A model generated the notes under the pieces. That model made no database searches, was not told the DNA's origin, and saw nothing but the letters and a program-made list of their open reading frames with translations. Of a stretch of DNA of 59,492 nt, positions 6,766 through 31,783 are shown piece after piece. This DNA comes from an uncultured Bacilli bacterium (lineage in GTDB: Bacteria; Bacillota_I; Bacilli_A; RF39; UBA660): positions 1 through 59,492 of the forward strand of contig CALVUM010000003.1 of NCBI GenBank assembly GCA_944363605.1, read 5' to 3'. The position numbers were made by a program, and so were the translations under genes. Each line of letters begins with the position of its first letter. The first letter of the stretch is position 1.

Positions 6766-8298
6766 TCAATTTTCAGCAAGCTTCTTCGGAATATCCAACC
6801 TCATAAAAATAGGTACTGGTTCTAAAACATAATATTCTTCATTTTCTAAATATCCAACATCTAAATTATTTGAAGCAATTTGTCTTAAAATTTCAGCCGA
6901 AGTATCAGGTAAATAGGGAGATAAGAAAATTGCACAATTTCTTATTCCTTCAAGCAAATTATAAAGTACCGTCTCTAACCGTTCTTTTTTCTCCTCTTCC
7001 TTAGCTAAACTCCATGGCATAGTGTCATCAATATATTTATTACTTGCTCGTAATGTTTCAAAAATTTCATCAATAGCAAGACCAATTTCCAACTTTGCCA
7101 TCTTTTTCTCTACCCGTTCTTCTAAAGAATTGATACTCTCTATATAAGAACTATCTACTTCATGAGATACAAATCGATTTAAAACTTTGCCATCAAAATA
7201 TTTATTGGCCATCGATATAGTTCGATTTACTAAATTTCCTAAAATATTAGCCAAATCACTATTAATTCGTTCCATAATAAGCTCATAAGTAATCGTACCA
7301 TCACTTGCAAAAGGAATTTCATGTAAAACATAATAACGAATCGCATCAACACCAAATAAATTTACCAAATCATCCGCATACATAATATTTCCTTTACTCT
7401 TACTCATCTTATCATTATTCATAAGTAACCAAGGATGTCCAAATACTTGTTTAGGTAACGGTAAATCCAAAGCCATCAATAAAATAGGCCAATAAATCGT
7501 ATGAAAACGAATAATATCTTTTCCAACTAAATGTAAATCAGCTGGCCACCATTTTTTAAACTCATCAGTTTGGTTATCTACGTCATAACCAATATTAGTA
7601 ATATAATTAGATAATGCATCTATCCAAACATACACAATATGCTTATCATTAAAAGGTACTTTTATTCCCCAGTCAAAAGCTGTTCTAGAAACACACAAAT
7701 CTTGTAAACCTGGTTTTAAAAAATTATTTAACATTTCATTTTTCCGTGATTCTGGTTGAATAAATTCTGGATGAGTTTCAATATACTCAATTAATTTGTC
7801 CTGATATTTAGACATTTTAAAGAAATAAGATTCCTCACTTTTCTTGGAAACTTCTCTACCACAGTCTGGGCACTTTCCATCCACTAACTGCGTATCTGTC
7901 CAAAAAGATTCACAAGGTGTACAATACCATCCCTCATATTTATCTAAATAAATATCTCCTTTTTCATATAACTTTTGAAAAATGTGTTGAACAACCAATT
8001 TATGATGTTCGTCTGTCGTCCGAACAAATTTATCATAACTAGTATTCATAACATCCCAAATCCGTTTTATTTCCCGGGAAATATTATCCACATATTCTTG
8101 AGGACTTAACCCAGCATCTAAGGCTTTTTGAGCAATTTTTTCACCATGTTCATCAGTTCCCGTTTGAAAATATACATCAAATCCTTTTAATCTTTTATAA
8201 CGAGCAATTGCATCAGCCAAAACAATTTCATAAGTATTACCAATATGAGGCTTTCCCGAAGCATAAGCTATTGCTGTTGTAATATAATATTTTTCCAT
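6766..8298 (-). CDS. metG: methionine--tRNA ligase (short form)
   Basis: 510 aa; HIGN (HIGH) motif, CPDCG zinc knuckle, KMSKSKGN (KMSKS) motif. Confidence 0.95.
   Translation of the reverse strand: MEKYYITTAIAYASGKPHIGNTYEIVLADAIARYKRLKGFDVYFQTGTDEHGEKIAQKALDAGLSPQEYVDNISREIKRIWDVMNTSYDKFVRTTDEHHKLVVQHIFQKLYEKGDIYLDKYEGWYCTPCESFWTDTQLVDGKCPDCGREVSKKSEESYFFKMSKYQDKLIEYIETHPEFIQPESRKNEMLNNFLKPGLQDLCVSRTAFDWGIKVPFNDKHIVYVWIDALSNYITNIGYDVDNQTDEFKKWWPADLHLVGKDIIRFHTIYWPILLMALDLPLPKQVFGHPWLLMNNDKMSKSKGNIMYADDLVNLFGVDAIRYYVLHEIPFASDGTITYELIMERINSDLANILGNLVNRTISMANKYFDGKVLNRFVSHEVDSSYIESINSLEERVEKKMAKLEIGLAIDEIFETLRASNKYIDDTMPWSLAKEEEKKERLETVLYNLLEGIRNCAIFLSPYLPDTSAEILRQIASNNLDVGYLENEEYYVLEPVPIFMRLDIPKKLAEN
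8068..8083. other. Noc-binding-site-like palindrome TATTTCCCGGGAAATA (inside metG)
   Basis: Perfect 16-bp palindrome containing the 14-bp B. subtilis NBS consensus ATTTCCCGGGAAAT; encodes ..NISREIK.. of MetG. Confidence 0.75.
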
Positions 8299-8334
8299 AA
8301 ATCTCTTCCTTTCAAAAAATAGTAAAAAACATCA

Positions 8335-8356
8335 AATTATTTCCCGGGAAATAATT
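8335..8356. other. NBS-like palindrome (22 bp) in the metG leader
   Basis: AATTATTTCCCGGGAAATAATT, located between the T-box terminator U-run and the metG RBS. Confidence 0.75.
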
Positions 8357-8360
8357 AAAT

Positions 8361-8566
8361 AAAAAAATCATGAACATAAGGACGAGATTACACCCGTGGT
8401 ACCACCTTATTTCATGATTTTATCATGCACTTAATCGATAACGCCATAAAAGCGATTCAACTCCAGAGCCATCTTCTACAATAAACCTTTGTCTAATTTC
8501 AGCTACCTAGACTCTCTAAAAAAGGTTACATTATATACTCTTTCCTTCCCCGTTGATTAAGATTAT
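8361..8566 (-). promoter_or_regulatory. T-box leader (Met specifier) with terminator/antiterminator upstream of metG
   Basis: Minus-strand read shows AGAGAG...GGTAGCTGAAA stem I elements. A GAAGATGGC specifier loop has its ATG at 8470-8472. The T-box sequence GGTGGTACCACGGG lies at 8391-8406. It sits in the loop of a terminator stem (8366-8381 pairing with 8405-8420) followed by a U-run. Confidence 0.75.
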
Positions 8567-8573
8567 TTTAGCA

Positions 8574-8602
8574 TAGATTTTAAAAAAGTCAAATGAAAGA
8601 AA
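8574..8602 (-). promoter_or_regulatory. sigma-A-like promoter for the metG T-box leader
   Basis: Minus strand TTGACT (8597-8602), spacer of about 17 nt, then TAAAAT. Confidence 0.45.
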
Positions 8603-8608
8603 ATCAGT

Positions 8609-9121
8609 TTACAAAACATCAATTTTATGAATTAATAATTTAGCCAAAAATTGCAAAAATCTTTTTTGTTCATTAGAAAAAGTAGAATCATTTAAAAAGA
8701 CCATTAATCCTACAACATCGGTAGAAATAATAAGCGGACAAATATAATAATAATAGGGCTCAATTTCCTCTAAAAGACTCTCCTTAGTTAAAGACTCATA
8801 AACCTCTCTATTTTCAAGAAATTTACTTAATCTTGAATTTAACGAAATATGTTTATATTCATTTTGAAAAGAAGCAATAACCTCTTCTCGGTCAAACACA
8901 AGAATCTTATAATTCATAATTTCATTAGAAAATACACATAACTGATTTGCTAATTCCTGATAATTTAACAATCTCGAATGCTTTTGTAAACAAATACCAT
9001 TTGAAGAAACAAAAATTTCTAAATTTTCTCCATCACGAATTCCTAAACTCCTTCGAATTTCCTTTGGAATAACAATTCTGCCTAACTCATCAATTTTTCT
9101 GATCACACCAGTATCTTTCAC
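8609..9121 (-). CDS. spoVT: stage V sporulation transcription factor SpoVT (AbrB-type N-domain plus GAF-like C-domain)
   Basis: 170 aa; TGVIRKIDELGRIVIPKEIRRSLGIRDGENLEIF matches the SpoVT/AbrB swapped-hairpin domain; lies directly downstream of mfd as in B. subtilis. Confidence 0.85.
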   Translation of the reverse strand: MKDTGVIRKIDELGRIVIPKEIRRSLGIRDGENLEIFVSSNGICLQKHSRLLNYQELANQLCVFSNEIMNYKILVFDREEVIASFQNEYKHISLNSRLSKFLENREVYESLTKESLLEEIEPYYYYICPLIISTDVVGLMVFLNDSTFSNEQKRFLQFLAKLLIHKIDVL

Positions 9122-9171
9122 TTCTTAAATTCACTCCAATCTAAGAAATATTGTGTAGAATTTTTCAAAAA

Positions 9172-12100
9172 TTATACTTCTAAATCTAAAACAATTTTCT
9201 GAATTAATTTGACAACATCATAAATAAAATGTTGCTTCATATTAAGTATATTCAAAGAAATAGAAATTCTTTTATTTTCATATTTTAATTGAAACTTTGG
9301 GTTAATATTATACGCTTCCAAAAAAAGCTTATCTCCCTTAATTTTTGAAGAGATTTCTTCTGGTAAATAAATGGTAAGAAGCCTGTCTGTTTGGCGGACT
9401 TCTTTAATTTTCAGTTTATCGGCCAATTTTTCAAACCATTCTTCATACATATAAACTTCCATTTGTGGAGTAATTGTCCCAAAACGGTCAGTTAATTGAG
9501 CTTTTATCTTTTCTAGTTTTTCTTCGGAATCCACTTCATTAATCATTTGATGAATTTCAATTCGAACCGATTCATCTTCGACATAATCTGAAGTAATATG
9601 TGTCTCAACATTAATTAAAGAATCACTACGTTCATCCTCTTCTAGCACAACCTCTCCTTTTAGCCTTTTCATTTCCTCTTCAATCATTTTCATATAAAGA
9701 CTTATACCAACCGAATCAACAAATCCTGCCTGTTCACTACCTAAAATATCGCCAGCTCCTCTTATTGATAAATCACGCATGGCTATTTTATAGCCACTAC
9801 CAAGTTCCGTAAAATCCCGAATAGCCTGTAATCTTTTCACCGCAATATCATTAAGAGTTTTTTGTTTTTGATATAGAAAATAAGCATAGGCAATTCGGTT
9901 ACTTCGCCCGACACGTCCTCTTAACTGATAAAGTTGACTTAAGCCAAAATAATCAGCATTATATATAATCAAAGTATTGGCATTAGGAATATCAATTCCC
10001 GTTTCAATAATCGTTGTACTAAGCAAAATATCAAATTGATGACTCACAAAATCTTCCATAATCGTATCTAACTCTTGTTTATTCATCCGACCATGCGCAT
10101 ATCGTATTCGTGCTTCCGGAACCAAACGTTTCAATTTGAAAAGAATTTCTTCAATAGTCTCGATTCGATTATATAAAATAAATATTTGTCCATCACGGGC
10201 TAATTCTTTGTAAATCGCGTCTTTAATTAGCATGTCATTCTCAGCAATTACATAAGTTTGCACTGGATAACGATTTACTGGCGGTGTATCAATAATAGAT
10301 AAATCACGAAGCCCTGAAAGAGCCATTTTTAAAGTTCTAGGTATCGGAGTTGCCGACAAAGTTAAAACATTTACATCATTTTTATATTTTTTAATTTTTT
10401 CCTTATGAGTAACCCCAAATCGTTGTTCTTCGTCAACAATTAAAAGCCCCAGTCTCTTAAATTGAACATCATCACTTAATAAGCGATGTGTCCCAAAAAC
10501 CATATCGATCTTTCCTGATTTTAAATCCTCAAGAATCCTCTTCGTTTCTTTAGGTGTAGTAAACCGATTTAACAAAGCGATCTCAACAGGATAATCTTGA
10601 AATCTTGCTAAAGCCGATTCATATTGTTGTTTAGACAAAATAGTTGTTGGACATAAATAAAGAACCTGATAATTGTTACAAACTGTTTTAAACATTGCTC
10701 GAAAAGCTACTTCCGTTTTTCCAAAACCAACATCTCCACATAATAATCGATCCATTGGAACTGCATTATCTAAATCTTTTAATACATCGGCAATCGCGCG
10801 ATTTTGGTCCCTTGTTTCTTCATATTGAAAACTTCTTGCAAAAACTTCTTCCTCTGGATAATCAATATACGAAACGCCTTTTACTTGACTTCTTTTTGCA
10901 TATAACTCAATAAGCTCCTTAGAAATATCATGAATTCTTTTTTGAATAGACTGCTTTTTCTTTTGCCATGCCGTTGAACCAAGCTTATTAATTTGAGGTT
11001 TTAAACCATCTTTATCACTATATTTATAAATAGTTGATATTTTCTCAACTGGCACATAAACTTTATCATTACCTAAATAGGATATTTGAACATAATCTTT
11101 TTTAATACCATGATTTGTTAAAGTAACTACTCCATTATAAACACCAATTCCATGGGCTCGATGAACAACATAATCGCCTAAAGACAAAGAATCTAACCCA
11201 TGAATCTTTTTTCCAATTCGAATCGGATTTTTATAAACAACTTCTTGTTTAACTTCTTCAATATCAAATTCACTAATAACAACTAAATCATCCCAAATAA
11301 ACCCCTTATTCATTTTTCCTTGAATAATTTGGATTTGATTCGGAAGAACATGATCATCTTTTAAAATAATTGACCCATCAAAAAGTTCTTGAATCGACTT
11401 AATTTGATTACTTTTAGATAAAACAAAAACAACGGTTTTCTTTTGCCGAATATATTGCAAAACAGTCTCCTGTAATTTCGTAAAATCTCCTCGAAAATTC
11501 TCAATTTCTCTAGTAGTAAACCGAATAACCTGTTTTTTATTTAAAGAATTTGTTACTTGATTAAGAAAAATTTGTTTTCTTGGTTTCAAATCCTCTAAAA
11601 ACCAAAAATGCTTTTTACCAATTGTCTGTTCCTCTTCATTAAAATGCGTCATTTCTAAAAGAAGTTTTTGATAACTACTGTCTATTTGTTCAGCATCAAA
11701 AGTAATTAATGTAGTATCTCCTAAATAATCATATAAAGAACTAGGTTCCGTACTGATAATTTCTTCATTAGAAGAACATTGGATAGAAGAAACGTTTTCC
11801 AAAGATAACTGTGTATTTTCATCAAAAAAACGAATGGATTCGATCGTCTCACCAAAAAACTCAATTCGTACGGGATGTTCTTCTTGATGAAAAAAGACAT
11901 CGACAATAAATCCTCGAACAGCATATTCTCCTGTAGAAGTAACGATAGAATCTCGTTGATAACCTAAATTTTCTAAAATTTGAATAACTTTATCTCTAGA
12001 AATATCCATCGATACTTTTAATTCAATTTCTAAATTTTCTTGCTCTTTCTTATTAGGTAAAAAACGTAGATACCCCATTAAATTCGTAATAACAATATAT

Positions 12101-12390
12101 TGACCTTCTTTAAGTTTCTCTAAAGTCTCTAACCTTTTAAGTTTTAATTCTGGAGAAACAGCTAAAGCCATTGAAGTAAAAAAATCATCCATTGGAAATA
12201 ATAAAACTTGATCTGTAAGTGTTTCTAAAGAACGAAAAAGTTGATTTGCCAAATAAAGATTACTCGTTAAAACAAGAATATTTTTCTTTTCCTTTTTAAA
12301 AGCTTCTAACACGTAAAAAGCGGATAACTCATGCGTTAATCCCTCTATCGTAATTCCATCTTCAAAAGAAAATTTTTCAAAAAAATTCAT
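9172..12390 (-). CDS. mfd: transcription-repair coupling factor Mfd
   Basis: 1072 aa; CarD-like YVVHRAHGIG, helicase GDVGFGKTEV, DEEQRFG, TATPIPRT, C-terminal TRG region. Confidence 0.95.
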   Translation of the reverse strand: MNFFEKFSFEDGITIEGLTHELSAFYVLEAFKKEKKNILVLTSNLYLANQLFRSLETLTDQVLLFPMDDFFTSMALAVSPELKLKRLETLEKLKEGQYIVITNLMGYLRFLPNKKEQENLEIELKVSMDISRDKVIQILENLGYQRDSIVTSTGEYAVRGFIVDVFFHQEEHPVRIEFFGETIESIRFFDENTQLSLENVSSIQCSSNEEIISTEPSSLYDYLGDTTLITFDAEQIDSSYQKLLLEMTHFNEEEQTIGKKHFWFLEDLKPRKQIFLNQVTNSLNKKQVIRFTTREIENFRGDFTKLQETVLQYIRQKKTVVFVLSKSNQIKSIQELFDGSIILKDDHVLPNQIQIIQGKMNKGFIWDDLVVISEFDIEEVKQEVVYKNPIRIGKKIHGLDSLSLGDYVVHRAHGIGVYNGVVTLTNHGIKKDYVQISYLGNDKVYVPVEKISTIYKYSDKDGLKPQINKLGSTAWQKKKQSIQKRIHDISKELIELYAKRSQVKGVSYIDYPEEEVFARSFQYEETRDQNRAIADVLKDLDNAVPMDRLLCGDVGFGKTEVAFRAMFKTVCNNYQVLYLCPTTILSKQQYESALARFQDYPVEIALLNRFTTPKETKRILEDLKSGKIDMVFGTHRLLSDDVQFKRLGLLIVDEEQRFGVTHKEKIKKYKNDVNVLTLSATPIPRTLKMALSGLRDLSIIDTPPVNRYPVQTYVIAENDMLIKDAIYKELARDGQIFILYNRIETIEEILFKLKRLVPEARIRYAHGRMNKQELDTIMEDFVSHQFDILLSTTIIETGIDIPNANTLIIYNADYFGLSQLYQLRGRVGRSNRIAYAYFLYQKQKTLNDIAVKRLQAIRDFTELGSGYKIAMRDLSIRGAGDILGSEQAGFVDSVGISLYMKMIEEEMKRLKGEVVLEEDERSDSLINVETHITSDYVEDESVRIEIHQMINEVDSEEKLEKIKAQLTDRFGTITPQMEVYMYEEWFEKLADKLKIKEVRQTDRLLTIYLPEEISSKIKGDKLFLEAYNINPKFQLKYENKRISISLNILNMKQHFIYDVVKLIQKIVLDLEV

Positions 12391-12402
12391 CCAAACTCCC
12401 CC

Positions 12403-12948
12403 TTAATTAAATTTATTCATCGTTTTCTCTATCCCATAAGAAATAAAGTATTCAATAATTTCCTGATATAAAGAAGAACTGTCCTTTAATTGGTTAATTT
12501 CTTTTTTAGAAAATTTTCCCAATACATAATCAATAACCGACTCTCTCTTATCATGTGAAATACCAATTTTCAAACGACAAAAGCCTTCTGTCTGTAACGA
12601 AGAGATAATCGATTTAATTCCATTATGTCCGCCTGAAGAACTATTTATTTTAAGTTTATAAGTTCCAAAAGTCAAATCTAAGTCATCCTGAATTACCAAA
12701 ATGTCCTTAGGTAAGATATGATAATACTGGGCAATTTTATGAACCGCAATTCCACTTAAATTCATAAAAGTTAAAGGTTTAACAAACAAAACCTCTTCAT
12801 TACCCATTCTCATTTTTGAAACACATGCCTGAAACTTCTTTTCAACCTTAAAATCATGAATAAATGAATCTAAAATCATAAAACCAACATTATGTCGGGT
12901 ATTTTCATATTCACTACCTGGATTTCCTAAACCTACAACCATTTTCAT
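12403..12948 (-). CDS. pth: peptidyl-tRNA hydrolase
   Basis: 181 aa; VGLGNPG..Y..TRHNVGF and GGHNGIKS motifs. Confidence 0.92.
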   Translation of the reverse strand: MKMVVGLGNPGSEYENTRHNVGFMILDSFIHDFKVEKKFQACVSKMRMGNEEVLFVKPLTFMNLSGIAVHKIAQYYHILPKDILVIQDDLDLTFGTYKLKINSSSGGHNGIKSIISSLQTEGFCRLKIGISHDKRESVIDYVLGKFSKKEINQLKDSSSLYQEIIEYFISYGIEKTMNKFN

Positions 12949-12957
12949 TCAAATCCC

Positions 12958-13668
12958 TCAATTCTTAAACAAATTTTGATAAGTCTCTAGTCCGCCTATA
13001 CATATAGGTGGTGCAATTTTACAACCAAATTTCCCATTTTTCACTAAAGTTACTAAAACAATAATTGGAGCTTGCTCTATTTTAGAATGAACAAACTGTA
13101 TTCTTTTAATACCTAAACCATATTGATAAGCATAAACCATAATTTCATCTAACCGATCAGGAACATGAACTAAAAAGAATCTTCCTTTGTCTTTTAACAA
13201 ATAACTTGCCATCCCAATTAATTCTTTTAAATTGATAGTTATCTCATGTCTTGCAATACTTTTTAAAGAATTTTGATTCACAAAATCAGGATTATGATAT
13301 TTAAAATAAGGTGGATTAGACAAAACAACATCAAAATTATTTCCCGGGAAATAATTTCCCAATTCCAAAACACTATCTTCAATAATGGAAACAGCATCTT
13401 CCATATCATTTTCTCTAATAGAATCTCTAGCTAAATCCGCAATTTCTTTTTGAATCTCCACTCCAATAATTTCTTTATGGTATTTATAATGTAACAAAAT
13501 AGGTATAACACCATTTCCAGTACACAAATCAATTATTTTCTCATCACTCTTACGAATCGTTGCATATTCAGCAAGTAAAATAGAGTCTAACGAAAATTTA
13601 AAACCATCTTCATATTGATAAATTTTTAAATTTGGATAATCAAACAACCAATTAAGCTGCTTCTTCAT
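12958..13668 (-). CDS. SAM-dependent N6-adenine methyltransferase, TrmN6/YabB-like
   Basis: 236 aa; DLCTGNG SAM motif and NPPYF catalytic motif; follows yaaT as yabB does in Bacillus. Confidence 0.7.
   Translation of the reverse strand: MKKQLNWLFDYPNLKIYQYEDGFKFSLDSILLAEYATIRKSDEKIIDLCTGNGVIPILLHYKYHKEIIGVEIQKEIADLARDSIRENDMEDAVSIIEDSVLELGNYFPGNNFDVVLSNPPYFKYHNPDFVNQNSLKSIARHEITINLKELIGMASYLLKDKGRFFLVHVPDRLDEIMVYAYQYGLGIKRIQFVHSKIEQAPIIVLVTLVKNGKFGCKIAPPICIGGLETYQNLFKN
13334..13357. other. NBS-like palindrome (24 bp) inside the methyltransferase gene
   Basis: AAATTATTTCCCGGGAAATAATTT; encodes ..NYFPGNNF.. Confidence 0.75.
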
Positions 13669-14443
13669 TTTCTAAACAAATCTCCCGTAACTCATCATTA
13701 ACCAAAACTTTATATTTTCTATTTAAAATATCCACACTTTTAACCTTACCTTCACCATAAGGAGTAGAAACAGTTTCCCCAACACTAGGCATTCCTTGTC
13801 CTGCAAGAATATATTGCTCATCCTCATAAGCTAAACAACATAATAGTCTTCCACAAGCTCCATTAATTTTCGAAGGATTTAAAGCTAAATTCTGATTCTT
13901 AGCCATATTCATTGTAACGGATTCCAAATGAGTTAAATAATTTGCGCAACAAAGACCACGACCACAAACGCCAATTCCACCAACATGAAAAGCTTTATCA
14001 CGTGCACCGACTTGCCTTAATTCTATCCGGGTATGATAAATACTAGCTAACTTCTTAGCAAGTTCTCGAAAATCCACCCGTTCATCTGCAAAAAAGTTAA
14101 AAAGCAATTGCTTACGGTCAAAAGTAAATGAAGAATCAATAAAATTCATATTCAAATTTAGTTCTTTACTAAATTGACGTGCTTTTTTCAAAGCTTCATC
14201 TGCATCTTTTAAATTTTTTAAATATTGTTCATAATCTTTTTTTGTAGCAATTCGCAAAATATTTTTTAATTCATTCGTATATTTAAAAGAAGCTTCTTTA
14301 TCCATTTTATTAACTACTCTACCAAACTGCTCCCCTTTTTCTGTTTCAACAATTACTGTAACTCGATTTGGTATTCGTAAATGTTGACCATTAAAATAAT
14401 AAATTTTTCCTTTATCTTGAAAAACAACACCATATATATTCAA
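13652..14443 (-). CDS. ricT: PSP1-domain stage 0 sporulation protein YaaT/RicT
   Basis: 263 aa; PSP1 core with cysteine clusters GVCGRGLCC and GACGRLLCCL; follows holB. Confidence 0.85.
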   Translation of the reverse strand: MNIYGVVFQDKGKIYYFNGQHLRIPNRVTVIVETEKGEQFGRVVNKMDKEASFKYTNELKNILRIATKKDYEQYLKNLKDADEALKKARQFSKELNLNMNFIDSSFTFDRKQLLFNFFADERVDFRELAKKLASIYHTRIELRQVGARDKAFHVGGIGVCGRGLCCANYLTHLESVTMNMAKNQNLALNPSKINGACGRLLCCLAYEDEQYILAGQGMPSVGETVSTPYGEGKVKSVDILNRKYKVLVNDELREICLENEEAA

Positions 14444-14446
14444 AAT

Positions 14447-15301: not shown

Positions 15302-15307
15302 CCAAGA

Positions 15308-15502: not shown

Positions 15503-15554
15503 ATATCTCCTAGTAATACATATGAAAAAAATCGGATTTCATTCCGATTTTAGA

Positions 15555-16847: not shown

Positions 16848-16848
16848 T

Positions 16849-17154
16849 TTACATCAAACCATCTAACATTCCAGCATATTGTCCCATTTTTGACTGAAAT
16901 TCTTTATCAATTTTTTGAATAGCATCCTTAGTCGCTAATACAATAAAATCCTCTAATAACTCAATGTCTGAAGCATCTAACCCATCTTTTTCAATTTTGC
17001 ATCGAACCATTTCCTTTTTTCCATTTAATGTAACTTCGACAAACTCATATTTCCCGGGAAATAATTGAGCATTAATTTCCTCTTTCTTTTTTTGTAAATC
17101 TCTCTGCATTTTTTGAGCTTGAGCCATTATATTTTGCATATTCATTGTAAACAC
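16849..17154 (-). CDS. ybaB: nucleoid-associated protein YbaB/EbfC
   Basis: 101 aa; between dnaX and recR; MQKMQ..LQKKKEE... pattern. Confidence 0.88.
   Translation of the reverse strand: MFTMNMQNIMAQAQKMQRDLQKKKEEINAQLFPGKYEFVEVTLNGKKEMVRCKIEKDGLDASDIELLEDFIVLATKDAIQKIDKEFQSKMGQYAGMLDGLM
17048..17063. other. NBS-like palindrome (16 bp) inside ybaB
   Basis: TATTTCCCGGGAAATA; encodes ..LFPGKY.. Confidence 0.75.
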
Positions 17155-18870: not shown

Positions 18871-19287
18871 CTATCTTTTATCTTTAAAAAAATCACTTAA
18901 TAGTTCATGATACATTTGTTCGTTTTTAAGATCATTTATCTTTAAAAATTCACTATCAGAAAACTCTTTTTTAAAGGACAACTTATCTAATAAAAAATAA
19001 ATCTTTTTTATTCGTGACTGCTTAATAATTTCCATACACATTGAACAAGGTTTTAACGTAACATAAAGTTCACAGTCGGCTAAATTCCATCTATTAAGTA
19101 TTTTTGAAGCTTTTAAAATCACATTTATTTCGGCATGACCCAAAACATTATGTTCTAATTCTCTCGTATTATGTGCCTTTGCAAGAATTTTATCATTCTG
19201 AACAAGAATGGCTCCTATAGGAACATCATCTTGTTGATAACTCTCCTTTGCTTCCTCAATAGTTGCTAAAACAAATTCCTCTTTCAT
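18871..19287 (-). CDS. tadA: tRNA-specific adenosine deaminase TadA
   Basis: HAE(INVI) and PCSMC deaminase zinc motifs. Start moved from the GTG at 19311 to the ATG at 19287, which follows GGAGG. The longer ORF overlaps the SRP RNA 3-prime stem. Confidence 0.85.
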   Translation of the reverse strand: MKEEFVLATIEEAKESYQQDDVPIGAILVQNDKILAKAHNTRELEHNVLGHAEINVILKASKILNRWNLADCELYVTLKPCSMCMEIIKQSRIKKIYFLLDKLSFKKEFSDSEFLKINDLKNEQMYHELLSDFFKDKR

Positions 19288-19305
19288 TTTTCCTCCATAA
19301 AAAAA

Positions 19306-19377
19306 GTGCACACAAACAGGGATTGACGTGGCTGCTATCTTCCGATCCTGACCAGATTACAATATATTTGTTGCACG
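19306..19377 (-). ncRNA. ffs: small SRP RNA (scRNA/ffs), short Firmicute/Mollicute-like form
   Basis: The minus strand reads GTGCAACAAA...CTGGTCAGGATCGGAAGATAGCAGCCAC...TTTGTGTGCAC. The middle matches the domain IV consensus GGUCAGGUCCGGAAGGAAGCAGCC, the termini base-pair, and a T-run follows. Adjacent to tadA/dnaX as scr is in B. subtilis. Confidence 0.6.
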
Positions 19378-19423
19378 TATAAAGAATAACAAAAAAAACT
19401 TAAACTTGCAACAAAAATTACAA

Positions 19424-19439
19424 TGTTTCACGTGAAACA
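19424..19439. other. parS site 1 (TGTTTCACGTGAAACA)
   Basis: Perfect 16-mer; embedded in a 32-bp perfect palindrome at 19416-19447. Confidence 0.85.
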
Positions 19440-19536
19440 TTGTAATTAAAAAGTTATATATTATCAACATACGCATAATAAAAAAATTTTAATTAAATCT
19501 TCTTAAAAATATCTAAAAACAAAGTTATACACTATA

Positions 19537-19552
19537 TGTTTCACGTGAAACA
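19537..19552. other. parS site 2
   Basis: Perfect 16-mer; embedded in a 28-bp palindrome at 19531-19558. Confidence 0.85.
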
Positions 19553-19565
19553 TATAGTTACAAAC

Positions 19566-19587
19566 AATTATTTCCCGGGAAATAATT
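19566..19587. other. NBS-like palindrome (22 bp) inside the parS array
   Basis: AATTATTTCCCGGGAAATAATT; the 16-bp core starts 16 nt after parS site 2. Confidence 0.75.
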
Positions 19588-19793
19588 TTATATTTAATTT
19601 ATTTATGATTAATTTTTTGCTTTTATTAATCTAAATACGTTTTATAATAGATTTTAAAGACAATTAATTATTAAAAACAAACAAATAGTAATATTTAAAA
19701 AATTAAGATTTAACAACCTAGTATATAAAGTAAAATATACAAGATCCTAGTTTTTTTCATAAATTAAATGTATATATTTTTATAAAAATTCAA

Positions 19794-19809
19794 TGTTTCA
19801 CGTGAAACA
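19794..19809. other. parS site 3
   Basis: Perfect 16-mer; 18-bp palindrome at 19793-19810; followed by TTATCCACT (19812-19820). Confidence 0.85.
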
Positions 19810-19989
19810 TGTTATCCACTTGAAATAACAAAATATTAAATTTTAAAATATATTTGAAATAAAATGACAATAATAGCAAACATATACATTTTTTATTACA
19901 GTAATTCTAAAATATTTTATGAAATTAAATTAATTTTAATAATTTCTTTTAAAATAAAGATAAATATTAACTGAAAAATAGACTATCTA

Positions 19990-20005
19990 TGTTTCACGTG
20001 AAACA
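19990..20005. other. parS site 4
   Basis: Perfect 16-mer; 24-bp palindrome at 19986-20009. Confidence 0.85.
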
Positions 20006-20152
20006 TAGAGTTACGAACAATACTTTTAGAGAATTACCAATTTAAAAGTAGTTAGAAAAAAGTTGATTATTTTAAATTAATAAATTATTTTTTTTGAGAT
20101 TAAAAGAGTAATTATTAAAGCTATTTTACATTTTATAATAATTTAACAACAA

Positions 20153-20168
20153 TGTTTCACGTGAAACA
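20153..20168. other. parS site 5
   Basis: Perfect 16-mer; 26-bp palindrome at 20148-20173; overlapped by TTATTCACA (20172-20180). Confidence 0.85.
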
Positions 20169-20364
20169 TTGTTATTCACAACGTTGCATTATTAAAATAA
20201 GAAAAATTTTATAAATAAAAACGCTTTGAAGTGTTAGATCATAAGAGTAGTATCAAAATAATGAAAGAAGCAAAATTATAAACTTTTGAATTAATCAAAA
20301 TATCTATTAAAAACAACAAGTCATTTCTACAAATATTTAAAAAACAAAAAATTATCTTTATTTA

Positions 20365-20380
20365 TGTTTCACGTGAAACA
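20365..20380. other. parS site 6
   Basis: Perfect 16-mer; 20-bp palindrome at 20363-20382. Confidence 0.85.
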
Positions 20381-20425
20381 TAGGTTATAAACATTTAAAA
20401 AAATCACTTACAAAAAAAATAGCAA

Positions 20426-20441
20426 TGTTTCACGTGAAACA
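20426..20441. other. parS site 7
   Basis: Perfect 16-mer; 28-bp palindrome at 20420-20447; 17 bp from the gyrA stop codon. Confidence 0.85.
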
Positions 20442-22915: not shown

Positions 22916-25922
<3,007 letters not shown>

Positions 25923-26008
25923 ATTTTTGCCCCTTAATTTTTATTTATAGAAAAAATATAGGTATACTAATACTCCTATACCTACATACATTATAACACA
26001 AAATAACC

Positions 26009-26470
26009 CTACATAACAGTTTTTTTTGCAGTTTTTCGCCCTCTTAAAGCACTTTCTAACCGAGTTGCTCGAAGAACTTGATTATCAATAATTCCATAAG
26101 AGGTTTTAACCGCAATTTTTATTCCATTTTGAAAAACAATAAACATAATATCTCCATCACGGTAATAGGATTTAATATATTTTAACCGAATCCAATTACT
26201 ATTTTCTCTTGTATTAGAAGTTGGAAAAAAAATAATTTCTTTAGATTCTTCTACAATAATAGGTGCCTTATAATTAACACCTATCATTGACTCAGTTCCT
26301 TTTCGTCTTCCATCAAGTGAACTTCCAAAATATCGACAGCTATCTTCCATAATTTTATTAGAAGGTTGTTCAATGATATAATGATCATTAAGCTCATATA
26401 CCTCCGAATAATTCTTATCAATAGATAAAATTGCTAAAGTTTCATCATTAATTTCATACTGCGTCTGCAT
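26009..26470 (-). CDS. comK: competence transcription factor ComK family
   Basis: 153 aa; YEINDETLAIL, DSCRYFGSSLDGRRKGT, KAPIIVEE, IIFFPTSNTR, NW, FQNG...SYGIIDNQVLRATRL align block by block with B. subtilis ComK (recalled). Confidence 0.8.
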   Translation of the reverse strand: MQTQYEINDETLAILSIDKNYSEVYELNDHYIIEQPSNKIMEDSCRYFGSSLDGRRKGTESMIGVNYKAPIIVEESKEIIFFPTSNTRENSNWIRLKYIKSYYRDGDIMFIVFQNGIKIAVKTSYGIIDNQVLRATRLESALRGRKTAKKTVM

Positions 26471-26585
26471 AATTTTCCCCCATTCATATGAAAATTGGTC
26501 TTACCCTATCATATAAAGAAAAAGAAAAATGTCGAAAAAACAAAAAGGATCTACTTTTCCAAAAAAAAACTGCATTTTCACAGTT

Positions 26586-27704
26586 TTAATAGGTTTTTAT
26601 AGGTAAAATTAATTGAATTAAACTTTCATCTGTCAAAGACTTAAGTACAATTGGTTTCACATCGTTATTTAAAAGGATCAAAATATCTTCATCTTTAATC
26701 GTTTTTAAAGCATCCATCATATAACGGGCACTAAAAGAAATATCAATTGAAGATTTCTCATCTGTATCAATAGTAATTCTTTCCTCAGTCTTACCAATTT
26801 CCGAAGCATAAGAATTAATAATCATTTCTTTATTTTCTATTTTCATTTTAATAATATTTTTATCTTTACCTTGAGTTAATAAAGCAGCTCGATCAACGGC
26901 TCCCATAAACTCACTTTTTTTCGCTTGAACAATAATTTCAAATTCAGTTGGAATCAAATTAGATGTATTTGGATAACTACCAGATAAAATATTCGTTTGG
27001 AATTTTAAATTTTTATATTGAAATAATACTCGATTATTAAAGACATTCATATAAACTTCTTCATCATCAACCAAAATATGTTCTAATTCTGTAATATTTT
27101 TTCCAGGAATAACTATATTTACATCAGTATCTACAGGAGTTTCCAATTTAATATTTTTCTTCGCTAAACGATAAGAATCAGTCGCAATAACTTCAAATAA
27201 ATCTCCATTTATCTTCATATTTAAACCAGTTAAAATTGGTCTTAGTTCCTGAGTTGATATCGCAAAAGACGTTTGATTAATTAACTCTTTTAAAATATCT
27301 GCTTTTATAACAATTGGATCTTTATGAGTTATCAACTTAATAGCTGGATATTCACTAGGATCTAAACAATTTAAATTATATTGATTAAAATCAGAATAAA
27401 TTTTAATTTTTAAACTATCCATCATTTCAAAGTTAATAACATCACTAGGCATCTTTCTAATAATATCCAAAATATATTTACTACTTATAATAATAGTCCC
27501 AGTGCTTTCAATATTTCGAATTAATTTACTTTCAATAAAAGATTCAATTGTTAATTCACTATCACTAGCGGTTAACGTTAACCCCTCCTCTTTTAATTCA
27601 AATTTAATACCATTAAGTACAGGAATAACATTTTTTGTTGATATCCCTCTTACAACATTATTTAAATTTTCTAATAATACATTTTTTTCAATTGCAAATT
27701 TCAT
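26586..27704 (-). CDS. dnaN: DNA polymerase III beta sliding clamp
   Basis: 372 aa; MKF.I.K..L, three-domain clamp pattern, C-terminal LILPIKTY; directly downstream of dnaA. Confidence 0.95.
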   Translation of the reverse strand: MKFAIEKNVLLENLNNVVRGISTKNVIPVLNGIKFELKEEGLTLTASDSELTIESFIESKLIRNIESTGTIIISSKYILDIIRKMPSDVINFEMMDSLKIKIYSDFNQYNLNCLDPSEYPAIKLITHKDPIVIKADILKELINQTSFAISTQELRPILTGLNMKINGDLFEVIATDSYRLAKKNIKLETPVDTDVNIVIPGKNITELEHILVDDEEVYMNVFNNRVLFQYKNLKFQTNILSGSYPNTSNLIPTEFEIIVQAKKSEFMGAVDRAALLTQGKDKNIIKMKIENKEMIINSYASEIGKTEERITIDTDEKSSIDISFSARYMMDALKTIKDEDILILLNNDVKPIVLKSLTDESLIQLILPIKTY

Positions 27705-27752
27705 TTTCCTACCTCTTTCTTATTTATATTAATATATTCATATTATTAATGC

Positions 27753-27861
27753 TGTGGATAATGTGTATAACTTTTAAAATGTCTTTAAAATAAACAAAAA
27801 TTGTCGAATTTTCATGTTTATAACTTTCCACATCGTAAAAAGATATCCACATCATATTTTA
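27753..27861. promoter_or_regulatory. DnaA-box cluster in the dnaA-dnaN spacer (oriC part 2)
   Basis: Perfect box (TGTGGATAA, i.e. TTATCCACA) at 27753-27761, abutting TGTGTATAA at 27762-27770 (8/9). CTTTCCACA lies at 27834-27842 and ATATCCACA at 27853-27861. Confidence 0.8.
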
Positions 27862-29240
27862 TTTTGAATCTCTTTCAACTGTTGTTCTAATGCTGGATTC
27901 TTCTTTAAATCACTTATTATTTTATCACAAGCGTGGATAACTGTCGAATGATCCCTACCCCCAAATTCTAAACCAATTCGATTTAAATTTTCTTCCGTTA
28001 AAGTTCGCGATAAATACATCGCGATTTGCCTCGGATAAGCAATATTCACACTTCTTTTCTTTCCTTTTAAATCATCAACCGTGATTTTATAATAATCAGC
28101 AACGGCCTTTTGAATACTTTCAATACTACTTCTTGTATAAATATTATGATTCACAAAATCTGCTAAAGCTTCAATTGCAAAATTTAAATCAACTTTATCT
28201 GGAACGATCATCGCAGTATAAGCTAATAGCCTGTTTACCGCTCCTTCAAGAAATCGAACATCATTTTGACAATTATTCGCAATATATTCGATAACATTTT
28301 CATCAATTTTATTAACAATCGAAGTATTTTTTAATTTAGACCGAATAATTTTACATCGAAGTTCAAAATCTGGTGGATAAATATCAACAGGAAGCCCCCA
28401 CATGAACCGGCTTCTAAGCCTTTCTTCTAAAAGCTTTAAATCATCAGGACTCCGGTCCGAGCTAATAATTATTTGTTTATTTGCCTGATGTAAAGCATTA
28501 AAAGTATGAAAAAATTCTTGTTGAGTCTTCTCTGCTCCTACTAAATATTGAATATCATCAATAATTAAAACGTCCACTTCCCGATATTTCTTTTTAAAAT
28601 CAGCAGCAACCTGAATATTATTCCCCTTATTTTCGTTATTAATAATATTAATATAATCATCTTTAAACATTTCACTTGTCGTATATAAAACCTTTTTATT
28701 AGAATGTTTTGTAATATAATTACCTATCGCATGCATTAAATGAGTTTTCCCAAGCCCACTCTTACCATAGATAAATAAAGGGTTATGCACTTTTCCAGGT
28801 TGCTCAGCAACGATCATTCCCGCAGTTTTAGCTAAACGATTTGAATCCCCTACTATATAATTTTCAAAATTTAAATCCGAAATTAAATTGGATTCCCACT
28901 CTTGCTCTACAGAAATCGTTGGTGTATTTACTACTTGAACAAACTTATCCACAGTATCCACATTTTGGGGTTTTTCCTCTTCTTCATTTTGAATCTCTTC
29001 TTTTAATAAAAATTCAAATTCATAATTATGATTCGTTATTTTATAAAAAGCATCATCAATTAAAGTATAATAGTTTTGAGTTAAAATACGTTTATGAATT
29101 TCCATAGGTACTTGAATATAAACTTTATTGTTTTGAATTTTAATTAACTTCAAATCGTTAAACCAAGCATGAAAAGAAGCGGTATTGACTTCTGGATATA
29201 TTTCGTCTAATACAGATTGCCAAAGATCTTTTTCACCCAT
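27852..29240 (-). CDS. dnaA: chromosomal replication initiator DnaA
   Basis: GKSGLGKTHL Walker A, IDDIQ Walker B, C-terminal DNA-binding GGRDHSTVIHA; start moved to the ATG at 29240 after GGGGTGG. Confidence 0.97.
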   Translation of the reverse strand: MGEKDLWQSVLDEIYPEVNTASFHAWFNDLKLIKIQNNKVYIQVPMEIHKRILTQNYYTLIDDAFYKITNHNYEFEFLLKEEIQNEEEEKPQNVDTVDKFVQVVNTPTISVEQEWESNLISDLNFENYIVGDSNRLAKTAGMIVAEQPGKVHNPLFIYGKSGLGKTHLMHAIGNYITKHSNKKVLYTTSEMFKDDYINIINNENKGNNIQVAADFKKKYREVDVLIIDDIQYLVGAEKTQQEFFHTFNALHQANKQIIISSDRSPDDLKLLEERLRSRFMWGLPVDIYPPDFELRCKIIRSKLKNTSIVNKIDENVIEYIANNCQNDVRFLEGAVNRLLAYTAMIVPDKVDLNFAIEALADFVNHNIYTRSSIESIQKAVADYYKITVDDLKGKKRSVNIAYPRQIAMYLSRTLTEENLNRIGLEFGGRDHSTVIHACDKIISDLKKNPALEQQLKEIQNKI

Positions 29241-29289
29241 GAAACCACCCCGCTTTAACATTTATCAACATTATTCTACACTTTTTTCT

Positions 29290-29534
29290 TTCAATTTAAA
29301 AGACTAAAATGTATACTAACACACTATTCACAAGTTATCAACAAAATAAATATCGATAAATAAAAGAAAAAATATAGTTATCCACATTATGAACATTTTT
29401 ATTTTTTCATAAATGTGCATTAGTGAATAATGTGTAAAAAACTTATCCACAGCATGTGAATATGTTCATAACTAATAAAAAAAGTAGATTTATAAAGAAA
29501 AAATTCTTGAAAAGTAAGTGGATAGTTATACACA
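29290..29534. promoter_or_regulatory. DnaA-box cluster upstream of dnaA (oriC part 1)
   Basis: Perfect TTATCCACA at 29378-29386 and 29443-29451; TTATACACA at 29526-29534; several 7/9 boxes (TTATCAACA, CTATTCACA). Confidence 0.85.
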
Positions 29535-29557
29535 ATGCCTGAAACATTCAGTAATTG

Positions 29558-29587
29558 TTGACTTTTTCTAGTTTTTAATATTATAAT
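29558..29587 (+). promoter_or_regulatory. sigma-A-like promoter of rpmH
   Basis: TTGACT (29558-29563), 18-nt spacer, TATAAT (29582-29587). Confidence 0.55.
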
Positions 29588-29619
29588 AAGGGAGCTTTAG
29601 AAAAAAGGAGGGAAGAACT

Positions 29620-29742
29620 ATGGTAGGAACTTATCAACCAAACAAACGTAAAAAAGCTAAGAAACACGGATTTTTTGCACGAAAAGAAACAAACATTTTA
29701 AAAAATAGAAGAAAAAAAGGACGTAAAAAATTATGTAAGTAA
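29620..29742 (+). CDS. rpmH: 50S ribosomal protein L34 (not in the ORF track; 40 aa)
   Basis: Hand translation gives MVGTYQPNKRKKAKKHGFFARKETNILKNRRKKGRKKLCK. AGGAGGG RBS lies upstream; canonical position between oriC and rnpA. Confidence 0.9.
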   Translation: MVGTYQPNKRKKAKKHGFFARKETNILKNRRKKGRKKLCK

Positions 29743-29744
29743 AA

Positions 29745-29769
29745 CCACATCTTTTATGTGGCTTTTTTT
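29745..29769 (+). terminator. hairpin plus T-run after rpmH
   Basis: CCACAT/ATGTGG stem followed by seven Ts; probably an attenuating terminator before rnpA. Confidence 0.5.
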
Positions 29770-29791
29770 ATATATAGAAAGGAAGAGCACT

Positions 29792-30136
29792 TTGAAAAAA
29801 ATAGAAATGATTAAATCTCATCAAGAGTTTACTGAGATTATCAAAAAAGAAAAATATCTAAAAAATAAAAATTTCTCTATATATATAAGGAAAGGAAAAT
29901 ATTCATTTCCACATTATGGTATTGCCGTTTCCAAAAAACTAGGAAATGCCGTAGTAAGAAATAAATTAAAAAGAAGGATGAGGGTTATTTTAGACGAATG
30001 GAAAAAAGATTTGAAGTACAATGAAGATTATATTATAATAATGAAAGAAAGCGTGCGTGATTTAACTTTTCAAGAAATGCAAGAAAGCTTTCTAAATTTA
30101 ATGAAACAAAGGAGCAAATATGAAAAAACAAAATAA
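29792..30136 (+). CDS. rnpA: ribonuclease P protein component
   Basis: KKLGNAVVRNKLKRRMR RNR motif. The start probably lies at the TTG at 29792 (after AAAGGAAGAG) or the ATG at 29807. The track start at 29756 lies inside the rpmH terminator. Confidence 0.88.
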   Translation: MKKIEMIKSHQEFTEIIKKEKYLKNKNFSIYIRKGKYSFPHYGIAVSKKLGNAVVRNKLKRRMRVILDEWKKDLKYNEDYIIIMKESVRDLTFQEMQESFLNLMKQRSKYEKTK

Positions 30137-31148
30137 AATTTTAGCATTCGTTTTATTAGCAATGATTTTTTTAGCCAGTGGCTGTGGTTCGGACGACTAC
30201 TTAAAAGATGAAAATGGAAATATCCTAGTAAACGAAGTAACTGGTCAAAGTGTTCAAAAAAATATTTTATGTCAACCAGAGAAAGATTCCGAATTATATA
30301 AAATATATGAAAGTCATGCTGATCAAATGGAAACGCCGGTAAATGAGTTACCATCATGTAAAGATTTTAATTTATCATCAAATAAATATGATGGGTTATG
30401 GCAAGCAATACTAGTTAGACCTCTTGCATTTATCATCTTACAAGTTGGTTTCTTATTTAATAATTTTGGTATATCCGTAATGCTAGTCGGTTTACTAATC
30501 AGATTAATCATCATGCCATTATCAATTAAAAGCATGCGTCAATCAAACAACTTACAAAAAGCTCAACCAGAAATTGCGCGTATTGAAAAAAAATATGCGG
30601 GAAAAACAGATAGTGATTCTATGATGGCCAAAAGTCAAGAAACAATGATGGTTTATCAAAAATATAAAATAAATCCTGTTTCAGGCTGTTTAGTGGCTTT
30701 AATCCAAATTCCGTTGTTCTTCGCATTTTTAGCCGCGATAAACGAAGTTCCAGCTATATTTGAAGGAGAACTTTTTGGAATGCATTTAGGAATGACACCA
30801 TGGAAAGGATTAGCCGAAGGTCAATATATATACATTGTTTTGATTTTCTTAATCGTCGCGACAACCTATTTATCATTTAGAAATACAATGAAAAGTAATC
30901 AAAATAATGAAATGATGAAACAAATGAATTTCATGGTAATGTTTATGATAATAAGTATCTCCATAGCTTCATTTAGTTTGCCAACCGCAATAGCATTTTA
31001 CTGGATCGTTGTAAATGGTTTCTCAGTAGTTCAAAATTATATTATAAAAAGAATATTAGCCAAAGATCAAAAAGATCCAAAGGTTATAGATATTAAACAT
31101 AAAGAAAAGAATATAAAAGGAAAGAAATCAAAGAAAGAAGTGAAGTAA
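30120..31148 (+). CDS. yidC: membrane protein insertase YidC/OxaA-type lipoprotein
   Basis: 342 aa; lipobox LASGC, conserved MP..IKSM..Q, PE...I..KY, and basic C-terminal tail. Confidence 0.9.
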   Translation: MKKQNKILAFVLLAMIFLASGCGSDDYLKDENGNILVNEVTGQSVQKNILCQPEKDSELYKIYESHADQMETPVNELPSCKDFNLSSNKYDGLWQAILVRPLAFIILQVGFLFNNFGISVMLVGLLIRLIIMPLSIKSMRQSNNLQKAQPEIARIEKKYAGKTDSDSMMAKSQETMMVYQKYKINPVSGCLVALIQIPLFFAFLAAINEVPAIFEGELFGMHLGMTPWKGLAEGQYIYIVLIFLIVATTYLSFRNTMKSNQNNEMMKQMNFMVMFMIISISIASFSLPTAIAFYWIVVNGFSVVQNYIIKRILAKDQKDPKVIDIKHKEKNIKGKKSKKEVK

Positions 31149-31149
31149 A

Positions 31150-31746
31150 ATGCCAACAGTAGTAGAAGCAAAAACCTTAATTGAAGCAGTCGAAGAAGCA
31201 AAAAATCTTCTTCATACAGACAAGATTTTTTATACGACTGAAGAAAAAAAAGGTGGTCTTTTTAAAGGAAAAACTTATCAAGTTTCCGCAATACCTTATC
31301 CAGAACTTTTAGAAGAAATGAAAAAATATTTAACAGAAATTACTGAAGGATTAGGATTAGAAGTAAAATTTGAAACAAGTATCGATGAACAAATTTTCAA
31401 TATTACAATGTATTCAGATAATAATTCAATTCTAATTGGCAAAAATGGTCAAACTTTAAAAGCCTTAGAAACAATGGTTAAAGCAAAAATAAATGTTGAC
31501 TGGCATATTCATCCAAAAATAGTCTTGGATGTCGAAAATTACAAAGAAAAAAGAATTGCCACTTTAGAAAGACTTGCTATCCAAACGGCTAAAGAAGTAA
31601 GACAAACTAAAGTTGATGTAGTTTTAGAAGATATGAACTCCTATGAAAGAAGAATAATCCATAATAAATTAGCAAATTTTAAAGGGGTTTCAACAATAAG
31701 TGAAGGAGAAGAGCCACATCGTCATATAGTAATAAAAGCAGAGTAA
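31150..31746 (+). CDS. jag: RNA-binding protein Jag/KhpB (KH plus R3H)
   Basis: 198 aa; IGKNGQTL KH motif and R3H ERRIIHN motif; follows yidC. Confidence 0.88.
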   Translation: MPTVVEAKTLIEAVEEAKNLLHTDKIFYTTEEKKGGLFKGKTYQVSAIPYPELLEEMKKYLTEITEGLGLEVKFETSIDEQIFNITMYSDNNSILIGKNGQTLKALETMVKAKINVDWHIHPKIVLDVENYKEKRIATLERLAIQTAKEVRQTKVDVVLEDMNSYERRIIHNKLANFKGVSTISEGEEPHRHIVIKAE

Positions 31747-31759
31747 TCTGTTTTTTTTA

Positions 31760-31783
31760 TAATTATTTCCCGGGAAATAATTA
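31760..31783. other. NBS-like palindrome (24 bp) between jag and mnmE
   Basis: TAATTATTTCCCGGGAAATAATTA, in the intergenic region just after the jag stop codon and a T-run. Confidence 0.75.

Follow-up and report, generated by a model that had tools for sequence, protein, structure and literature searches.

Noc-binding-site palindromes around the replication origin of an uncultured gut Bacilli bacterium and their putative Noc-like reader

What reads a 16-bp palindrome that recurs six times, three of them inside genes, in an AT-rich stretch of bacterial chromosome? The palindrome, TATTTCCCGGGAAATA, lies in a 59.5-kb stretch (the whole of the metagenome-assembled contig CALVUM010000003.1 of assembly GCA_944363605.1, positions 1 to 59,492; hereafter, the window) with a G+C content of 29%, from a lineage of low-GC gut Bacilli that are kin of Candidatus Ventrenecus and "Coprobacillus sp. 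CAG:605." It has the sequence of the Noc-binding site (NBS), and the window also encodes a Noc-like protein of the ParB/Noc family. With moderate confidence, we propose that the two would form an origin-domain system, in which the Noc-like protein organizes, positions, or regulates the replication origin rather than carrying out chromosome-wide nucleoid occlusion. The six copies are as follows.

Positions 8068 to 8083, unstranded: NBS copy 1, a 16-bp palindrome in metG (codons ~72 to 77, read as NISREIK)
Positions 8335 to 8356 (core 8338 to 8353), unstranded: NBS copy 2, a 22-bp palindrome in the metG leader, between the T-box and the metG start at 8298
Positions 13334 to 13357 (core 13338 to 13353), unstranded: NBS copy 3, a 24-bp palindrome in a TrmN-like methyltransferase gene (12958 to 13668, minus strand), read as YFPGNN
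Positions 17048 to 17063, unstranded: NBS copy 4, 16 bp in ybaB/ebfC (16849 to 17154, minus strand), read as LFPGKY
Positions 19566 to 19587 (core 19569 to 19584), unstranded: NBS copy 5, a 22-bp palindrome in the parS array
Positions 31760 to 31783 (core 31764 to 31779), unstranded: NBS copy 6, a 24-bp palindrome between jag and mnmE, ~2 kb rightward of oriC

All six are exact (0 mismatches) and sit where the first-pass annotation of this DNA had placed them, with cores starting at 8068, 8338, 13338, 17048, 19569, and 31764. No further copy with ≤2 mismatches was found in the window, and dinucleotide-preserving shuffles gave a mean of 0.05 copies and a maximum of 1. That annotation had also held that every CCCGGG in the window belongs to the motif and that one such hexamer or fewer should occur by chance; both statements hold, with all six hexamers lying within a copy and 0.79 expected from composition. 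Perfect palindromy extends over 16, 22, 24, 16, 22, and 24 bp in copies 1 to 6, the longer ones (22, 24, 22, and 24 bp) being the three intergenic copies and the methyltransferase copy, as had been claimed, and the extended consensus around the core is AAT-TATTTCCCGGGAAATA-ATT. The 16-mer is the central 16 bp of the NBS oligonucleotide GGATATTTCCCGGGAAATATCC from the Noc-DNA crystal structure (PMC7383237), contains the 14-bp palindrome ATTTCCCGGGAAAT that defines the NBS, and matches the core common to Bacillus subtilis and Staphylococcus aureus (PMC5540599), in agreement with its earlier identification as the B. subtilis NBS.

Is the conserved element DNA or the encoded peptide? The three genic copies lie at offsets (modulo 3) of 2 in metG (NISREIK), 0 in the methyltransferase gene (NYFPGNNF), and 1 in ybaB (LFPGKY). 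Relatives were collected in a scan anchored on RicT, with one genome per species, which gave 80 loci with RicT identities of 60 to 88%; the window's own species is not among them, the best identity being 88%. An exact NBS was found at the orthologous codons of the methyltransferase gene in 48 of 78 relatives, of ybaB in 26 of 77, and of metG in 19 of 57, a positive outcome for the conservation at synonymous positions that the first-pass annotation had suggested examining. In nearly all of these loci, CCCGGG and the NBS are equal in number. Mismatches to the NBS in the methyltransferase gene were bimodal: 48 genes had none, one had 1, none had 2 or 3, and the rest had 4 to 11. Genes with the NBS encode YFPGNN at this place, and those without it encode unrelated peptides (YILPES and others); since the peptide varies with the presence or absence of the NBS, it is the DNA site that sets the protein sequence, rather than the protein sequence that sets the site. 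Together with the three offsets, this bears out the view that the conserved element is DNA. All 48 NBS-bearing methyltransferase genes use the rare GC-rich codons TTC and CCG in the site; elsewhere in these 48 genes, third-codon positions are 51% identical pairwise and 0.4% invariant. Third-codon identity outside the site is 51 to 65% in NBS-bearing genes, and synonymous sites are saturated. Because orthologous copies are all-or-none and their rare codons are fixed despite this saturation, the genic NBS copies are kept by selection on the DNA.

These results bear on two explanations that involve no DNA-binding protein of the Noc type. CCCGGG is a type II recognition sequence, and its restriction to the motif in the window is what would be seen if the palindrome were a by-product of CCCGGG restriction-modification; a short mobile or REP-like repeat is a related possibility, and the first-pass annotation had named both as competitors. 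However, with so few CCCGGG expected by composition there is no avoidance to explain, and ten more flanking bases are fixed. The 60-nt flanks of the six copies are 0.30 identical, compared to 0.32 for random window pairs, and are unrelated past 24 bp; no target-site duplications were found around any of the six, and the copies occupy orthologous codons in different species whose synonymous sites are saturated, which is not how a mobile repeat would be distributed. Unrelated flanks, absent duplications, and orthologous copies effectively refute this explanation, which we rejected and to which we give next to no probability. An RNA-level role, with the palindromes acting as hairpins, terminators, or leader structures, is just as remote. 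The three intergenic copies could form hairpins of 9 to 11 bp, one of them in the metG leader past the T-box, but the other three lie in coding sequence in three different frames, which effectively refutes such a role. Moreover, no T-tract follows the copies, the terminator scan picks the T-box terminator (8397 to 8380) and not an NBS, the Rfam matches in the window (T-box, small signal recognition particle [SRP] RNA, and L31 leader) lie over none of the sites, and the sequence reads alike on both strands and is the same in every copy.

Copy 2 sits between the T-box terminator and the metG start, and its occupancy could affect metG expression. The T-box leader itself lies upstream of metG at 8375 to 8559 on the minus strand.

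Where do the sites lie with respect to the origin? Two features define it.

Positions 27753 to 29534, unstranded: oriC, with dnaA between DnaA-box clusters at 27753 to 27851 and 29262 to 29534, at the GC-skew switch
Positions 27852 to 29261, minus strand: dnaA

The GC skew changes sign at ~29 to 30 kb of the window, and the genes rnpA-yidC-jag-mnmE-mnmG-rsmG run rightward from oriC. From the skew switch, dnaA with its DnaA-box clusters, and the rnpA-to-rsmG gene order, it follows that the window straddles oriC. All NBS in the window fall within 8.1 to 31.8 kb; none was found at 1 to 8 kb or 31.8 to 59.5 kb of the window, nor in the 10 kb past its left end (L091), in the right-arm loci L081 to L084, or in the parAB loci of relatives. 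Public metagenome contigs were scanned for the NBS in its 22-bp form, which represents 39% of the 16-mers, so that 16-mers with other flanks elsewhere would escape the scan. It returned 120 stretches, and one or more genes of the metG-to-noc origin segment lie on 107 of them (89%). Among the remaining 13, several are fragments of 1 to 2.7 kb (two of which, L145 and L172, are parS-NBS arrays) or lie up to ~25 kb from origin genes on the same contig. In 23 contigs of ≥100 kb (4.13 Mb in total), each with an origin-context hit, the DNA at a distance of more than 25 kb from the hit amounts to 2.92 Mb and holds no further 22-mer.

For the 22-bp form, these 120 stretches and 23 long contigs thus show no scatter over most of the chromosome with a terminus left free, and the dispersed, terminus-depleted pattern that the first-pass annotation had raised is probably not the one here. 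We think it likely that the NBS is confined to ~25 kb on either side of oriC in this lineage. In comparison, B. subtilis has ~70 NBS over two-thirds or most of its 4.2-Mb chromosome (PMC4331003), and S. aureus has 41 NBS loci within 700 kb on either side of the origin (PMC5540599). The density of ~1 copy per 4 kb across 24 kb does exceed that of B. subtilis, as had been stated, but it is the density of an origin-restricted cluster and not of a genome.

Single sites turn over, and the cluster remains at the origin. The metG-region pair, with sites ~250 to 270 bp apart, recurs in relatives (16077/16328 in L009 and 16042/16300 in L033). The jag-mnmE spacer carries an NBS in at least 13 metagenome loci from more distant relatives (e.g., L099, L131, L143, L164, L168 to L170, and L210) and has none in the right-arm loci of the Ca. 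Ventrenecus-like relatives (L081 to L084).

The recF-gyrB junction is a recurrent NBS position in more distant relatives (L102, L109, L113, L149, L150, L197, L203, L208, L215, and L217); no NBS lies at this junction in the window.

Which protein would read these sites? The window offers one candidate.

Positions 38015 to 39238, plus strand: Noc-like gene of the ParB/Noc family, 407 aa, presumed NBS reader, 6 kb from an NBS

The protein has the ParB box motifs (GERRFKAA and VENIQRRNL, the latter with ENIQRR), a helix-turn-helix (HTH), and a C-terminal dimerization domain, and so carries the set by which the Noc/ParB domain organization is recognized (GERRxRA and ENLQR boxes, HTH, and C-terminal dimerization domain). 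Among NCBIfam models it scores best against Noc TIGR04285, with 281.8 bits, which falls short of the curated cutoff (315), and its best PDB matches are Geobacillus Noc structures (7NG0/7NFU), at 194 bits compared to 176 bits for Thermus Spo0J, a modest gap. In the HTH region (SQSSIANKLRLLNL...ERHAR), the specificity positions 173, 179, 184, and 201 are occupied by Q, K, N, and R, which do not vary among 14 family members with identities as low as 71%. Residues Q173, K179, K184, and R201 switch ParB from parS to NBS, and one K, at 179 or 184, suffices (Jalal 2020, PMC7383237). Three of the four residues (Q173, K179, and R201) are identical to those of Noc and a single K suffices, so the protein has the residues predicted to confer NBS specificity. 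Judged by sequence, the six palindromes are very likely sites for the Noc-like protein.

The Noc-like partner assumed in the first-pass annotation therefore exists as a ParB-family gene with the Q/K/R residues, but it is not a canonical Noc, since it falls below the family cutoff and has no N-terminal helix. The amphipathic membrane helix that occupies residues ~1 to 10 of Noc is absent from the 407-aa protein, which starts 5 residues ahead of the conserved core and aligns to Noc 7NFU from chain residue 26; no start codon lies upstream of 38015 in the open reading frame (ORF), and the family has the same N terminus. The ParA-stimulating N-terminal peptide of ParB, LG(R/K)GL, is absent from it as well. 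Between the DNA-binding and C-terminal domains lies a ~150-aa linker (residues ~200 to 360), mostly disordered and acidic, with the invariant islands PNKFFNFLEDEAANM, IEVLDD, MPFLF, and IVDPMDSVIKLDPNY, which are candidate partner-binding motifs. The AlphaFold2 model is confident for the N-terminal and DNA-binding domains; the linker is modeled with low confidence, as disordered.

In relatives the gene directly follows rsmG, as noc does in Bacillus, and in the window three genes lie between them. The soj-spo0J pair is not adjacent to it, and motif regexes and a hidden Markov model (HMM) of the Noc-like family, run against all stop-to-stop ORFs, detected no other ParB-family ORF and no ParA in the window. 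The homologue P0097 is labeled by NCBI just "ParB/RepB/Spo0J family," a label that may well mask an NBS reader.

Could another factor, such as a canonical ParB, DnaA, or an unrelated regulator, read the palindromes, with the Noc-like gene nearby by coincidence? The sites do often adjoin parS and DnaA boxes, but the ParB of the lineage has R at position 173, the parS type, where the Noc-like protein has Q. The NBS differs from parS (TGTTNCACGTGAAACA) at 4 of 16 positions and is not a parS; no NBS in the window comes within 3 mismatches of one. Those four differences are exactly the positions read by Q173 and R201, both invariant across the Noc-like family, and the DnaA box is a separate 9-mer. 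We regard this explanation as very improbable.

What else shares the origin region with the NBS? The parS sites are concentrated in one array.

Positions 19424 to 20441, unstranded: parS array, seven perfect parS sites (TGTTTCACGTGAAACA) in a spacer of ~1 kb that separates the SRP RNA/tadA from gyrA

The flanking base of parS is A in 100% of 159 sites, so that the site is effectively an 18-bp ATGTTTCACGTGAAACAT (A...T). NBS copy 5 lies within this array, 16 nt past the parS at 19537 to 19552, as the first-pass annotation had noted. DnaA-box-like 9-mers adjoin three of the parS sites in the window (at 19461, 19812 to 19820, and 20172 to 20180), and a perfect DnaA box, TTATCCACA, at 8084 to 8092 abuts NBS copy 1. 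The array is kept in relatives as 12 to 14 copies in tight tandem with a period of 40 to 41 bp (L033, 5207 to 5729; L054, 1 to 447), and L060 has 17 parS copies at ≤2 mismatches between 2468 and 5567. A composite unit, A-TGTTTCACGTGAAACA-T-TGTGGATAA-aat-TATTTCCCGGGAAATA-att, in which a parS is followed by a perfect DnaA box and an NBS, recurs upstream of gyrA in several metagenome contigs. Units of parS, TGTGGATAA, and NBS number five in L112 (which has seven NBS in total), four in L107, and two each in L152 and L172, and also occur in L165; L145 has five parS-NBS pairs with a near-consensus DnaA box. Pairs of parS and NBS with starts 22 to 36 bp apart were found in 20 loci (32 bp in the window), and 27% of parS and 14% of NBS have a DnaA box (≤1 mismatch) no more than 11 bp away, compared to an expected 1.8% (201 loci), although both enrichments are inflated, as orthologous sites and array copies are not independent. 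The DnaA boxes beside NBS and parS, which in some relatives lie between the two in each repeat unit, suggest that the gyrA-upstream spacer doubles as a cluster of DnaA boxes.

Relatives encode, in addition, a canonical ParA and a ParB of 295 aa, in the gene order ftsH-parA-parB-mscS-DUF951-ychF (L085, 2130 to 3792; L088, 9226 to 10891; L089; and L090). This ParB has the N-terminal LGKGL motif and an R173-type helix, GKSRSYVTN. In L060, parA lies at the end of the contig (20304 to 20780), ~10 kb from ricT, and the parA-parB pair of the lineage does not lie beside rsmG/noc. Other matches to the L060 ParA fragment were mostly fragments on short contigs, and two (L086 and L087) came from unrelated contexts; these were set aside. 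By sequence, then, the lineage has two ParB-family proteins with two predicted cognate sites.

The absence of an N-terminal helix bears on classical nucleoid occlusion, in which an ordinary Noc would tether the chromosome to the membrane and block the Z ring, as it does in B. subtilis and S. aureus, the six sites being the origin-proximal part of a chromosome-wide set missing only at the terminus. In favor of it, the core motif is identical to the NBS of B. subtilis and S. aureus, the best family model is Noc, and the NBS sets described so far already lean toward the half or two-thirds of the chromosome that is origin-proximal; only ~70 kb of this species' genome is covered, and an internal amphipathic helix predicted at residues 259 to 270 could in principle stand in for the N-terminal one. 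However, the N-terminal amphipathic helix is highly conserved in examined Noc homologues and, in B. subtilis, is required both to bind the membrane and to function (PMC4331003, PMC8429893), and it is absent here, without room for it upstream of 38015. The lack of 22-mers in 2.92 Mb of origin-distal DNA, with 89% of matches at the origin, also stands against a chromosome-wide set, and interleaving with parS is not known for Noc. We consider classical occlusion unlikely, though less so than any of the other alternatives considered above.

The origin-domain system that we prefer would work as follows. The six palindromes would be nucleation or loading sites for the Noc-like CTPase encoded at 38015 to 39238, which, if it behaves like its characterized relatives, would undergo CTP-dependent clamp closure and spread over several kilobases per site. 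With sites 0.3 to 12 kb apart, such spreading may produce a continuous coat over ~40 to 45 kb that takes in oriC, dnaA, and the parS array, and the protein would act on the origin beside ParB-parS, through partners of its linker motifs. A nonclassical role at the origin is proposed because the protein lacks both the membrane helix and the ParA-interacting N terminus and has conserved linker motifs instead. Our confidence in any specific function for the origin domain is low. A bolder version, which we put forward tentatively and regard as possible rather than probable, is that the helix-less Noc paralogue and a canonical ParB, side by side on interleaved NBS and parS with, in many cases, a DnaA box in between, make up a composite module of two clamps that would serve as centromere and control the origin, at oriC only. 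Such a module could represent Noc in its ancestral, origin-bound state, before the membrane anchor and dispersed sites arose; alternatively, it could be a derived system coupling origin segregation, replication initiation, and division.

Beyond the partial reach of the 22-bp form and the nonindependence of paired sites given above, several observations weigh against this interpretation. The Noc-like protein scores below the Noc cutoff and not far above Spo0J in the PDB comparison, and its position 184 is N rather than K. The linker island PNKFFNFLEDEAANM is itself the predicted short amphipathic helix at 259 to 270, with an acidic polar face and a low predicted local distance difference test (pLDDT) score. 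Two 22-mer matches (L104 and L185) lie on long contigs in non-origin contexts, and the confinement was measured on contigs rather than complete genomes of the lineage. Finally, no canonical ParB of the window's own species was found on this contig and the 10 kb beyond it; the seven perfect parS sites argue that one is encoded on another contig of this species.

How does this arrangement compare with known systems? Noc-NBS (Wu 2009; Adams 2015, PMC4331003; Pang 2017, PMC5540599; Jalal 2020/2021, PMC7383237, PMC8429893) shares the same 16-bp site, a ParB/Noc-family reader with CTP-binding boxes and Q173/K179/R201, a gene location downstream of rsmG, and multiple, origin-biased chromosomal sites. 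In S. aureus, Noc spans 8 to 10 kb per site and controls replication initiation (PMC5540599), which sets a precedent for the origin role proposed here. Unlike Noc, the reader described here lacks an N-terminal helix for membrane targeting, falls short of the NCBIfam cutoff, and carries a 150-aa linker of conserved motifs; soj-spo0J is not adjacent, and the sites form pairs with, or are interleaved among, parS and DnaA boxes and, for the 22-bp form, lie within ~25 kb on either side of oriC. The ParABS system has origin-proximal clusters of a 16-bp palindrome in common with it, the NBS arrays of relatives resembling parS arrays, as well as a reader from the CTP-dependent clamp family, here recognized by sequence. 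It differs in that the NBS is off parS at 4 of 16 positions, the reader has Q173 and lacks LG(R/K)GL, and relatives have a separate ParA/ParB pair.

RacA-ram in B. subtilis sporulation and RicO-ricS in S. aureus offer a functional analogy only, as short palindromes concentrated at oriC that organize or position the origin. The ricS sites are likewise mixed in among parS sites, and an interplay with the spreading of ParB has been proposed (bioRxiv 10.64898/2026.03.06.710092), which makes RicO-ricS a second precedent. The protein folds and motifs are unrelated, and a membrane or pole anchor has been demonstrated for the RacA and RicO systems, in contrast to the system described here. The sites of the two ParB-family paralogues of B. 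subtilis, Spo0J and Noc, are not known to be physically interleaved, unlike the sites described here, and the Noc sites are dispersed. The two paralogues reportedly act jointly (PMC6852036).

The site and the protein family were thus known already, and what is new is the combination of a helix-less, long-linker paralogue, origin-confined NBS, and interleaving with parS and DnaA boxes, of which we found no description in the literature searched. Noc is a key case of a ParB duplicate that took on both a new DNA specificity and another task, nucleoid occlusion by membrane tethering. NBS specificity without the membrane helix would separate these two innovations within an existing lineage, so that their order in the evolution of Noc could be tested. 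The arrangement likewise points to a so far undescribed form of origin organization by two ParB-family clamps in widespread uncultured gut bacteria.

Other features of the window and its surroundings concern the host. Sporulation genes (yabP, spoVG, spoVT-like, spoIIR, and spoIID) and a class A penicillin-binding protein (PBP) occur in the window (2150 to 3423, 8609 to 9121, 48137 to 48643, and 53833 to 54753) and in L084 and L091. Because of the PBP and the sporulation genes, we conclude that the lineage, which several records label "Tenericutes," belongs to the Bacilli, is walled, and probably forms endospores. Beyond the ends of the window, sequence was followed by means of the terminal proteins, which added 10 kb on the left (L091), with neither an NBS nor parAB in it, and stopped on the right ~300 bp past agrB. 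An agr-like module lies at this right end (56120 to 58961), with a LytTR response regulator, a HATPase_c_5 kinase, a small ORF, and AgrB. Public contigs from independent assemblies (L095 to L098) all end ~300 bp past agrB, which suggests that a repeat or variable region lies there. Next to the parS array, the longest tadA ORF (18871 to 19311, minus strand) shares 22 nt at its 5′ end with the small SRP RNA (19290 to 19387, minus strand), and the GTG start of that ORF at 19311 is probably overextended.

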